DNA of 25,766 bases from Pirellulales bacterium. GTDB lineage: Bacteria; Planctomycetota; Planctomycetia; Pirellulales; PALSA-1355. The DNA lies in NCBI GenBank assembly GCA_035503215.1, contig DATJTR010000117.1:1-25766 (forward strand), written 5' to 3'. Under the pieces are notes generated by a model, which was given only the letters and a program-made list of their open reading frames with translations, was not told the origin of the DNA and ran no database searches. Made by a program: the position numbers and the translations under genes. Below, piece by piece: positions 15,268 through 18,567 of this stretch. The first letter of the stretch is position 1, and every line of letters begins with the position of its first letter.

Positions 15268-16053
15268 ATGAGATCGCGGCCGCCGGCCCGGCACCGGATC
15301 GTGGTGCTAGGCGCAAGTAACGTTGCACGTGGGATTTCGGTCATCGCCGAAACCGCCCGCCAAATTCATGGTCGGCCGCTGGAGATTTTCGCCGCCTTCG
15401 GCCGTGGCCGCTCTTTTGGCAAGACCAGTTCGTTCTTGGGTCACCAGCTGCCGGGCATCGTCGAAAGCGGTCTCTGGCAGTCGCTCTCTGCGCAAGCGCA
15501 CCTGCCCACCAGCGCGCTGGTGACCGACATCGGCAACGATTTGTTTTACGATCAGCCGCTGGATCGGATCGTCGGTTGGATCGATTTTTGTCTCGCGCGG
15601 TTGGCCGCGCTCGAAGCGCGGACCGTGGTCACGCGATTGCCTTTGGACAACTTGCCGGGGCTCGGCGAGCGCAGATTTCGGCTGCTGCGAAAAATTTTTT
15701 TTCCCAACTGTCGACAAAGCCTGGCCGAGGTGACCGAGTCGGCCCGAGCGCTCGACGCGCGCGTCGCCGAGCTGGCCCGCGCGTATGGCGCGGAGATGAT
15801 TTCGCCGCCTCGCGCGTGGTATGGATTCGACGCGATTCACATTCGTCTCCGCGCCGTGCCGCGGGCCTGGCGTGAGATTCTGTTGGCCTGGTCGCCGGCG
15901 ACGGCGCCCGCGCGCGGCGTGGCGCCTTCGCCACTGCGTGCGCTCTATCTGAATACGGTTTTTCCCGAGCGCCAGCGTGTTTTTGGCCGTGCCTGGCAGG
16001 TGCGGCAGCCGTCGGGAAAACTGCCGGACGGGACGACGATGTGGTTCTATTGA
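15268..16053 (+). CDS. SGNH/GDSL hydrolase-like protein
   Basis: Block I VVLGASN, block III DIGNDL, block V FDAIH. Follows the M50 gene by 32 nt. Confidence 0.72.
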   Translation: MRSRPPARHRIVVLGASNVARGISVIAETARQIHGRPLEIFAAFGRGRSFGKTSSFLGHQLPGIVESGLWQSLSAQAHLPTSALVTDIGNDLFYDQPLDRIVGWIDFCLARLAALEARTVVTRLPLDNLPGLGERRFRLLRKIFFPNCRQSLAEVTESARALDARVAELARAYGAEMISPPRAWYGFDAIHIRLRAVPRAWREILLAWSPATAPARGVAPSPLRALYLNTVFPERQRVFGRAWQVRQPSGKLPDGTTMWFY

Positions 16054-16268: not shown

Positions 16269-16296
16269 TTGCAGAAATCAGAAGAATTTGTACAAC
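16269..16296 (+). promoter_or_regulatory. Candidate sigma70 promoter TTGCAG-N16-TACAAC for the micropeptide locus
   Basis: Lies in a locally AT-rich patch immediately before the structured leader. Spacing is 16 nt. Confidence 0.4.
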
Positions 16297-16489
16297 TACT
16301 AATCAGTGTGTTTCCCTGAACGAGGAGTTGATCGGCCCGACGTGATCACCAGCGACTCGTGTGCGTGTGACGCGACTGGCCGTGACTGAGTGTTGCGTTT
16401 CTGTTCAGGGTGGGACTCGCTCGCAGACAAACGTGACCTTGGAGGTCACCGAGACGGATCTCGCCGAAACTTTTTTTGGAGGACGGACT

Positions 16490-16576
16490 GTGGCCAAGAA
16501 GAAGAAAGCTGCTGTGAAGAAGGCTGCCCCGAAGAAGAAGGCCCACAAGAAGGCGGCCAAGAAGAAGAAGAAGTAG
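16490..16576 (+). CDS. 28-aa Lys/Ala-rich histone-H1-like micropeptide (MAKKKKAAVKKAAPKKKAHKKAAKKKKK)
   Basis: GGAGG at 16478-16482, 7 nt before GTG 16490. In-frame AAG/GCT/GCC codons to TAG. 16 Lys and 8 Ala. The ORF track extends it to GTG 16361, but that start lacks a comparably placed RBS. Confidence 0.8.
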   Translation: MAKKKKAAVKKAAPKKKAHKKAAKKKKK

Positions 16577-16594
16577 CTTTGAAGAAGTAGCATC

Positions 16595-16785
16595 GTGCCG
16601 GTAGCACTTGGGGCCGGTAGAAACTACCCCCCTGGCAAGCTACGCGGAACAGGCACCGCTTAGAGCCCGCTCGACTCTGCACAGGGCATCGAGGCCCGCC
16701 GCAAGGCGAGTGTCAGCCTGAGGATGGGTGCCGCTACCCCCGTTTGGCGCTTGGTGTGAAAACCCAGCCGGCCAGCGGTAACGAA
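16595..16785 (+). ncRNA. Candidate structured RNA (3' UTR element or separate sRNA), no family recognised
   Basis: Hand-found helices: GGTAGC 16600-05/GCTACC 16733-38; GGCACC 16652-57/GGTGCC 16727-32; GGGG(CC)GGTAG-AAA-CTACCCCCC 16610-32; CTCGA...TCGAG enclosing CTCT-GCAC-AGGG; CGCC-GCAA-GGCG; GCT.GGT-GTGAAA-ACC.AGC within TGGC...GCCA and CGTT...AACG. No convincing ORF; ends just before a terminator. Confidence 0.5.
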
Positions 16786-16796
16786 ACAACGAGAAA

Positions 16797-16834
16797 GAGC
16801 CGCCGGAAGGGTCTTCCGGCGGCTCTATTTTTTT
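16797..16834 (+). terminator. Rho-independent terminator
   Basis: 13-bp perfect stem GAGCCGCCGGAAG/CTTCCGGCGGCTC, loop GGT, followed by TATTTTTTT. Confidence 0.9.
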
Positions 16835-16840
16835 GAGGAA

Positions 16841-17017: not shown

Positions 17018-18106
17018 TCACATCTTCAGCGACGGCAACGGCGCGGCGGCGGGTCCGGCGGCGGCGAGATTGCGGACGAGCGTCTTGACGATCGCTTCCA
17101 AATAGGGCGCGGCGGCGGGATCGGTGAGATTGGCCGCCGTTTGACCACTGTCGCCGTGCTCGCGAATCGAAATCGTGATCGGCACCTCGCCCAAGAACGA
17201 AATGCCCAGCTCGGCCGCGCGGCGTTTGGCCCCGCCCGATCCAAAAATGTCGTACCGCTTGCCGCAATCGGGACAGACGAAGCCGCTCATGTTCTCGACC
17301 ATGCCCAGCACGGGAATGTTTACCTTGCGAAACATCGCCACCGCTTTCACCGCATCGAGCAGGGCCACGTCTTGCGGCGTGCACACCACCACCGCACCGG
17401 TCAGGGGAACGAGCTGCGATAGGCTGAGGGCAACGTCGCCCGTGCCGGGGGGCATATCGATCACCAGGTAGTCGAGCGGGCCCCAAGCAACGTCGCGCAA
17501 AAACTGGGTCAGCGTGTGGTGCAGCATCGGCCCACGCCACACGACCGCCTCGCCCGGGGCGACGAGCAAGCCGATCGAAATCATTTTCAGCCCGGCCGCG
17601 TCGATCGGCTGGATGCGGCTTTGCACTACCTCGGGCTTGCCGCTGGCGCCGAGCAGGTGCGGGATGCTGGGGCCATAGACGTCGGCATCGAGCAGGCCGA
17701 CGCGGCTGCCGGCTTTGGCCAACCCGAGCGCGAGACTGGCGGCGATCGTGCTCTTGCCGACGCCTCCCTTGCCCGAGCCGACCGCAATGATGCTCTTTGC
17801 GGTCACGCCGAGCTCGCCGCGCGGCTGCGGTGGCCGGTCGAGCACGGCCAGATCGACTTTCACTTCTTCGAGTGCCGGAAACCGGCCGGTGAGGAGCGTG
17901 ATCAGCCCGCGACAGGTGTCGTCCCACAAGGGAGCCGAATGGGTCGAGAGGGCCAGGGTGAGCGAAACGCGTCGGCCATCGATCGCCAGATCGCGGATCT
18001 GCGAGCCGGCCAGAAGGCTTTCGCCGGTTTCGGGATCGACGACCTCGGCCAACGCCCGCTCCAGGTCGGCCCGGCTGGGCAGTTCACTCGTGGGGGAATC
18101 GCTCAT
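17018..18106 (-). CDS. mrp: Mrp/ApbC/NBP35 iron-sulfur cluster carrier ATPase with N-terminal DUF59-like domain
   Basis: VGSGKGGVGKST, DADVYGPSIP, VVWRGPM, YLVIDMPPGTGD, GMVENMSGFVCPDCG, LGEVP. N-terminal LAEVVDPETG. Confidence 0.94.
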   Translation of the reverse strand: MSDSPTSELPSRADLERALAEVVDPETGESLLAGSQIRDLAIDGRRVSLTLALSTHSAPLWDDTCRGLITLLTGRFPALEEVKVDLAVLDRPPQPRGELGVTAKSIIAVGSGKGGVGKSTIAASLALGLAKAGSRVGLLDADVYGPSIPHLLGASGKPEVVQSRIQPIDAAGLKMISIGLLVAPGEAVVWRGPMLHHTLTQFLRDVAWGPLDYLVIDMPPGTGDVALSLSQLVPLTGAVVVCTPQDVALLDAVKAVAMFRKVNIPVLGMVENMSGFVCPDCGKRYDIFGSGGAKRRAAELGISFLGEVPITISIREHGDSGQTAANLTDPAAAPYLEAIVKTLVRNLAAAGPAAAPLPSLKM

Positions 18107-18123
18107 CGCGGTTTCAAATCCTC

Positions 18124-18567
18124 TCAAGATTCCAAGGGAAGCGTCTGCCAGATTTGTTCAACGAGTTCGTCCATGGCCGCCCAATGCCGGCTGGTGGCGT
18201 GGCGGCCGAGATGCCGCCGGGCCAGCCGCACCACGGCCGGTGCTTCGCCGCGGCCGCAGCAAACCTGCACGGCACCGAGTTCGCTGGCAAGTGCCGCCTC
18301 GTCGGCATCTTCGCGATCGAGCAGCACCACGACCGGGGCCTTGGGGTAGCGGCGTCCGAGGGTGTCGACCATTTCAGCCGCCTGATCCCGTCGCTGGGCG
18401 CTCCAGGCCAGGGCCACCAGGCTTTCGGGCGCGTCGGCAAGCCGTGCCAAAGCATCGGCCGGGCGACGCGTTTCGACGATCCGCAGCGGCTTGTCACCCG
18501 CAGCCTGCCGTAACGCGGCCGCCCAGCGGCCGGTCGGTTCGCAAACGATGAGTGCGGGACGAGACAT
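18124..18567 (-). CDS. Receiver (CheY)-fold-like protein with degenerate phosphorylation site
   Basis: LIVCE...WAAAL / ADALARL...SLVAL / YPKAPVVVL...AALASELGAVQV follows the alternating beta/alpha receiver layout. Ends 17 nt before mrp. Start placed at MSRPAL (18567). Confidence 0.6.
   Translation of the reverse strand: MSRPALIVCEPTGRWAAALRQAAGDKPLRIVETRRPADALARLADAPESLVALAWSAQRRDQAAEMVDTLGRRYPKAPVVVLLDREDADEAALASELGAVQVCCGRGEAPAVVRLARRHLGRHATSRHWAAMDELVEQIWQTLPLES

Follow-up and report, generated by a model that had tools for sequence, protein, structure and literature searches.

A lysine-rich micro-gene conserved beside mrp in Pirellulales, with a putative nucleic acid–coating product

We find a 28-codon open reading frame (ORF) that is, on balance, a genuine micro-gene, transcribed on its own and translated, held at one chromosomal position in the planctomycete order Pirellulales, whose product is most likely a polycation that coats DNA or RNA. 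It lies at positions 16490 to 16576 of the plus strand of the window, by which we mean the whole 25,766-nt stretch of DNA analyzed, a contig from the assembly of a Pirellulales bacterium. A block made up of an RNA leader and the ORF is conserved. The pattern of codon change points to selection on a protein, and the composition and variable length of that protein point to an electrostatic role.

The micro-gene and its conservation across the order

The frame runs from a GTG start (16490–16492) to a TAG stop (16574–16576), with 27 sense codons after the GTG, and encodes a Lys/Ala polycation of 28 residues, MAKKKKAAVKKAAPKKKAHKKAAKKKKK. The peptide comprises 16 lysines, eight alanines, and one each of valine, proline, histidine, and methionine; acidic, aromatic, and large hydrophobic residues are absent. 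A Shine-Dalgarno (SD) sequence, GGAGGA (16478–16483), is separated from the start codon by a 6-nt spacer, and the arrangement GGAGGAYG...GTG recurs order-wide. The ribosome-binding site, GTG start, peptide sequence, and count of 16 lysines with no acidic residue had all been proposed in a first-pass annotation, and both coordinates and letters are confirmed in the sequence. This frame is the densest in lysine of the whole assembly (12 per 20 residues; 4.67 Mb, 63.6% GC), in which just eight open frames reach at least 9 lysines per 20 residues. A candidate promoter, TTGCAG-16 nt-TACAAC (16269–16296, plus strand), was recognized by eye within an AT-rich stretch and is putative; a consensus promoter scan returned no sigma-70 site.

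The micro-ORF lies between a 261-amino acid (aa) gene (15268–16053) and mrp, which encodes a Mrp/NUBPL-type P-loop ATPase on the opposite strand (17018–18127). Because this next gene downstream runs on the other strand, the micro-ORF stands alone. The adjoining genes gave no clue to its function. The 261-aa gene has no Pfam family, shows 42 to 60% identity between genomes, and shares synteny with the micro-ORF at every same-family locus. Gene callers skip the micro-gene, and an exact look-up of 10 peptides (MAKKKKAAVKKAAPKKKAHKKAAKKKKK and nine orthologues) in a collection of 15 billion proteins found none of them, which bears out the earlier remark that the frame is too short for routine annotation.

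A DNA query spanning 16300 to 16840 matched all 40 relatives searched. In all 24 same-family genomes, DNA identity was 78 to 94% over a block that begins at about 16398 and ends with the stop codon, and so takes in the ORF and roughly 90 nt of its leader; ordinary intergenic DNA can no longer be aligned between genomes this far apart. Sequence from about 16442 onward is still recognizable in other families of the order. The extracted orthologues all share one layout: a U-run, GGAGGAYG, 5 to 7 nt, GTG GCC AAG AAG AAG, a Lys/Ala run, and a stop after the last lysines. We searched the order with the corresponding start signature (GGAG-N6-9-GTG-GCN-AAR-AAR-AAR) and found it in 99 of 151 genomes and 27 of 30 families, at one to three copies per genome, whereas the reversed control pattern occurred in no genome. 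A search with the leader DNA through 300 genomes across the phylum gave no match outside the order. The matches to a MAKKKK pattern that a search across the class returned outside the order were rejected as unrelated proteins that have the N-terminus alone in common.

Synteny was equally consistent. The order M50 peptidase, 261-aa gene, micro-ORF, convergent mrp was found in 19 of 19 same-family loci checked, and mrp adjoins the micro-ORF in two other families as well. With Mrp as the anchor in public genomes, a K-rich ORF convergent to mrp was present in 47 of 80 named Pirellulaceae or Pirellulales loci; the 47 are nearly all metagenome-assembled genomes labeled Pirellulaceae, Pirellulales, or Planctomycetia, and several of the 33 loci lacking the ORF end at a contig edge. 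In-frame conservation near mrp in Pirellulales had been predicted beforehand and is what these loci show, and their labels bear out the taxon guessed at that time. The loss of frame or RBS that would have spoken against the gene was looked for at homologous loci; frame, GTG, and SD were kept in all 38 orthologues first examined, and the start codon was GTG in 45 and ATG in 2 of the 47 named loci.

Several related or similar genes were seen along the way. A second Lys-rich micro-gene lies on another contig of the window's assembly, G000 (contig C687; L002:271-411, minus strand); it encodes 46 aa, MAVKKKVAKKTVKK...KKVAKKKK, and has an ATG start and a leader that differs from that of the micro-gene at 16490. 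Several relatives carry a second copy of the GGAGGAYG-GTG-GCC-AAG arrangement (G018:C324, G004:C32, G010:C87, and G011:C20). Another small protein family, present at about 10369 of contig C82 (plus strand) of G000 and at L042 (G036:C92), has an N-terminal …GSNxMFADGWExAF… and a Lys/Ala/Ser-rich tail, and is distinct from the MAKKK family.

Coding capacity and strand

Orthologues at this locus range from 18 to 105 aa, always in frame, and among the 38 first examined they end in TAG (33) or TAA (5). Pooled, they consist of 59% lysine and 27% alanine, with one acidic residue in total among about 1200. Extra states at codon positions 1, 2, and 3 numbered 10, 12, and 25, so that the third position has about twice the variation of the first or second. 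Together with the fixed SD-GTG geometry and the stop right after the lysine run, this third-position excess indicates selection on the protein, as far as sequence comparison can tell. Note that AAG repeats slip by 3 nt whether they are coding or not, and in-frame indels are thus weak evidence. The case for sense coding is therefore made by the invariant SD-GTG geometry, the wobble changes in GCN and CCN codons, and the placement of the stop.

Periodicity cannot by itself assign the strand, because an antisense ORF (16405–16593, minus strand; 62 aa, rich in Phe, Ala, and Leu) is open in all orthologues and has its third codon positions in common with the sense frame. We considered that there might be no gene on the plus strand at all, either because the frame opened by chance within an (AAG)n microsatellite or because the antisense ORF is the real product. 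We give this almost no credence. The antisense frame has no conserved SD, and in about 15 of 38 loci no start codon precedes the repeat in that frame, whereas the sense strand has the invariant SD-GTG and the T-run of the terminator; the Phe-rich antisense ORF was rejected as the product for want of a start codon in many loci. Order-wide synteny and conservation exclude chance, and on these comparative grounds the frame at 16490 to 16576 is not a chance ORF. We infer that it is translated from the plus strand. One orthologue, in G020 (L005:1508-1591), has an internal 7-codon out-of-frame segment (…KKKAAQEGTRSKKK) and then rejoins the same stop; either the frameshift is real and compensated or the repeat was misassembled.

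A structured leader, a terminator, and a short RNA

The conserved leader core (16403–16489, plus strand), with 80 to 90% DNA identity across all 24 same-family genomes, contains two hairpins, an alternative long-range helix, and then the U-run. Hairpin H1 pairs GUGACC with GGUCAC (16433–38/16444–49) around the loop UUGGAG, and hairpin H2 pairs CGAGA with UCUCG (16450–54/16459–63) around the loop CGGA. The long-range helix, found with RNAalifold, pairs GGUGG with UCGCC (16409–13/16461–65) and excludes H2. In an alignment of 28 leaders, 85% of the cells in H1 and H2 were paired, compared with 35 to 44% when the partners were slid; over the leader helices as a whole the values were 85 to 90% and 35 to 61%, with changes on both sides in seven pairs. 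Other families have swapped the arms of H1 for other complementary pairs, such as GCGUCUU/AAGACGC and CCUUC/GAAGG, and the long-range helix is 97% paired, with G-C replaced by A-U in nine sequences. The fold of the single leader sequence was not unusually stable against shuffles (z = 0.22), so the claim of structure is a claim from covariation. H2 and the long-range helix may be alternative states, and hence a possible two-state switch before the ribosome-binding site.

The leader is also rich in GGA. Its last 65 nt contain five GGA in the window's own sequence, and the mean is 4.2 per 65 nt; the corresponding values are 1.0 for flanking DNA and 1.4 for shuffles. Two of the GGA, however, belong to the SD, which formed part of the pattern by which the loci were chosen. 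Within the same family, GGA stands in the H1 loop in 20 of 20 sequences, in the H2 loop in 16 of 20, and between SD and start in 19 of 20. CsrA-type regulators bind leaders arranged in this way. We detected four genes of the CsrA family (PF02599) over the cut-off in G000, which is 79% complete (C343:4949-5098, C553:2705-2860, C529:417-554, and C461:5819-5944), and 2 to 17 per genome, typically 8 to 12, in 41 of 41 genomes searched (40 relatives and G000). The family is strongly expanded in Pirellulales by comparison with the single gene of E. coli, B. subtilis, or Thermotoga. The structured, GGA-rich leader probably gates translation, possibly through CsrA. However, several other families have the ORF but no loop GGA, and we therefore treat CsrA control as a lead rather than a finding.

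Downstream of the stop, a 3′ untranslated region of 219 nt (16577–16795, plus strand) is long in the window's genus only; it could be aligned to a single same-genus genome, G001 (79% over 16312–16835), and in other genera the terminator lies about 60 to 100 nt past the stop. The motif GAAGAAGTAG is repeated around the stop codon (16567–76 and 16581–90), and a second in-frame stop, TGA, is at 16580–82. The intrinsic terminator (16796–16834) has a GC-rich stem of 14 bp (16796–16826) and a run of seven T on the plus strand (16828–34); no other strong terminator lies close by. On the minus strand its T-rich tail is weaker. It is probably bidirectional and serves the convergent mrp too. The block from 16773 to 16836 (AACGAGAAAGAGCC...GGCUCU-U7) is 82 to 91% identical in other genera and recognizable in another family (G035). 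Searching the window against Rfam gave no match at the gathering score, and a permissive search gave terminator-like matches alone, all below threshold.

The structured 3′ region and terminator after the ORF in the window's genus, and a codon bias toward a single amino acid like that of the his, phe, and thr leader peptides, would also suit an attenuator, in which a ribosome on the 16 lysine codons senses lysyl-tRNA or translation capacity and controls a downstream element. This seems to us highly improbable: mrp is convergent in all loci checked, which leaves no co-directional gene downstream, conservation of the 3′ region stops at the genus, and orthologues reach 105 aa.

The conserved core is present in more than 40 public metatranscriptomes from soil, peat, wetland, litter, rhizosphere, and freshwater, including some RNA libraries that hold merely 12 to 25 million letters. 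When we looked for RNA-seq from a cultured relative, metatranscriptomes alone came up. In four metatranscriptomes that we compared with the window, coverage was confined to 16390 to 16580, and homologue-bearing contigs measured 120 to 430 nt. One 219-nt contig from peat, nearest to the orthologue of G009, reaches about 100 nt upstream of 16441 and has a word depth of 2138, which is a poor measure of expression. Another, of 428 nt and from a close relative of the window's genus, begins 55 nt or more ahead of 16390 and runs on for 139 nt or more past the stop, which places the transcript start upstream of about 16335. Short contigs at very high depth apparently fit a small, abundant, monocistronic RNA, with the proviso that metatranscriptome contigs are strandless and that DNA may be present in RNA libraries.

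Such abundance in short contigs, the covarying hairpins of a conserved leader, the three- to fourfold enrichment of GGA, which in the window's family occupies the two hairpin loops and the surroundings of the SD, and the 2 to 17 CsrA genes in every genome searched would also be expected if the RNA were the main product, for example an abundant small regulatory RNA acting as a CsrA sponge or target hub, with translation of the lysine ORF secondary or modulating that RNA, as in a dual-function sRNA. We rate this as improbable. The third-position excess, the invariant SD-GTG, and the stop after the lysine run point instead to selection on a protein; several other families retain the ORF yet have no GGA loops; and there is neither an Rfam match nor a leader stability above that of shuffles. 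A combination of the two is an outside chance of about the same order: a bifunctional, CsrA-gated switch in which the abundant RNA binds or titrates CsrA and, once released, is translated into a polylysine-like nucleoid condenser of 21 to 30 aa. If true, the transcript would be among the most abundant RNAs of Pirellulales, the peptide would be the smallest known bacterial chromatin protein, and the condenser would set the compact planctomycete nucleoid or switch it in the swarmer/sessile life cycle.

Affinities and proposed role of the peptide

We found no family for the peptide, the 46-aa paralogue, or six longer orthologues (37 to 104 aa) in Pfam or NCBIfam at E values up to 10 or 1. A homologous-protein search with the 46-aa paralogue produced 850 candidates and no significant match, composition correction having stripped the low-complexity matches. 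In the ESM Atlas, a 78-aa orthologue fell among Planctomycetota clusters of "hypothetical protein," and the first cluster bearing HC2 was at rank 23. Our literature search found no description of the micro-gene, nor a relevant ribosome structure or transcriptome study from a planctomycete.

The first-pass annotation had likened the peptide to the tails of histone H1 and to bacterial DNA condensers such as the chlamydial Hc1 and Hc2. The likeness holds for composition, which is rich in Lys, Ala, and Pro as in H1 tails and Hc2, but not for profiles, since those of Hc1, HC2, and the linker histone gave no match and the micro-gene locus was not among the matches of a whole-genome scan with HC2 (PF07382). 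In composition and length polymorphism the peptide thus recalls H1 tails and Hc2, but it cannot be demonstrated to belong to either family. Hc2 (hctB; PF07382) and Hc1 (PF07432) belong to the same PVC superphylum as the host of the micro-gene and, like the micro-peptide, are Lys/Ala-rich, of low complexity, and free of acidic residues, with translation apparently controlled by the 5′ leader. Hc2 varies in length as short lysine-rich units are gained and lost (PMC2848022), and the micro-gene family is likewise variable; its same-locus orthologues of about 50 to 105 aa resemble small proteins of the Hc2/AlgP type. The peptide of the window, in contrast, is six to eight times shorter than Hc2 or Hc1, and it has none of the N-terminal or winged-helix globular domain of Hc1 or linker histone H1 (PF00538), only the tail-like part. 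Whereas Hc1 and Hc2 belong to a late developmental stage, the micro-gene appears to be housekeeping-like and abundant.

Repeats of the A(A)KK/PKK kind link the peptide to AlgP of Pseudomonas (KPAA repeats), BpH1 of Bordetella, the C-terminal tail of HupB/MDP1 in mycobacteria, and Streptomyces DdbA, which has an H1-like domain (PMC3643593). By analogy with these, electrostatic, sequence-independent DNA binding would be expected. They are, however, proteins of 100 to 350 aa or tails on folded domains, whereas in the micro-gene the tail is the whole protein. ScvA of Coxiella burnetii is a basic DNA-binding peptide of about 30 aa that is specific to the small-cell variant. Like ScvA and the sperm protamines, both of them found with condensed chromatin, the micro-peptide is micro-sized, extremely basic, and stand-alone, and these may be its closest functional analogues as a minimal condenser; they are rich in Arg (or Arg and Gln) rather than Lys and Ala, and there is no sequence relationship.

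Small ribosomal proteins are a further comparison. At 20 to 35 aa, with a pI above 12, often unannotated and highly expressed, bS22, bL37, Thx, and eL41 resemble the micro-peptide, which could be a lineage-specific counterpart associated with the ribosome or rRNA. The peptide is tiny, extremely basic, and apparently very highly expressed; its strong SD and conserved structured leader recall the autoregulation of ribosomal proteins; and one to three start signatures per genome across the order have a housekeeping character. Yet no NCBIfam ribosomal micro-protein family matched the peptide at E values up to 10, nor did any Pfam ribosomal family, and the gene lies outside any ribosomal operon. 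Proteins such as bS22 have a fixed length and specific Arg/Lys patterns, whereas this family is of low complexity and spans 18 to 105 aa, unlike proteins of a fixed rRNA pocket. We regard a ribosomal role as unlikely, if the most serious of the alternatives. The length range at a single locus favors a nonspecific electrostatic role over a fixed binding pocket, and for that reason we rank the coating of polyanions above a ribosomal protein.

For the coating polycation that we favor, the following course can be proposed. A short monocistronic mRNA would start near 16300 and end with the terminator (16834), its GGA-rich structured leader gating translation, possibly via one of the many CsrA paralogues. 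Initiation at the GTG, aided by the strong SD, and removal of the Met would yield a disordered peptide of about 27 residues with a net charge of about +16. This would act stoichiometrically, as a polycation on the phosphate backbone of DNA (compacting the nucleoid), of RNA, or of both, without sequence specificity, and its length would be tuned in each lineage by in-frame gain or loss of AAG and GCN codons. In vitro, about 13 or more charges suffice for an oligolysine to condense DNA. To our knowledge, every bacterial K/A/P-rich protein that has been studied (Hc1/Hc2, AlgP, BpH1, and the HupB/MDP1 tail) binds DNA. For this reason, and because the nucleoids of the group are condensed, DNA is the first candidate target. 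Nucleic acid binding and a nucleoid role are what we infer from these analogies; binding to RNA or to the ribosome fits the data equally well. The genome carries two HU homologues, and a nucleoid role for the peptide is therefore not required; it would work in addition to the usual nucleoid proteins, not in their place.

Planctomycetes have permanently condensed nucleoids, and we know of no proteins identified as being behind this condensation. A conserved, apparently highly expressed polycation gene is a concrete candidate. Should the peptide instead be located on ribosomes or in RNA condensates, this would be no less novel for the group. The micro-gene falls below the gene-calling limit of about 90 nt and is missing from Pfam, NCBIfam, and the 15-billion-protein collection alike. 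It suggests that a gene can encode nothing but a stand-alone "histone tail," whose length is tuned by codon-repeat slippage. Furthermore, the covarying leader, in genomes with up to 17 CsrA paralogues, offers a way into post-transcriptional control in a little-studied phylum.
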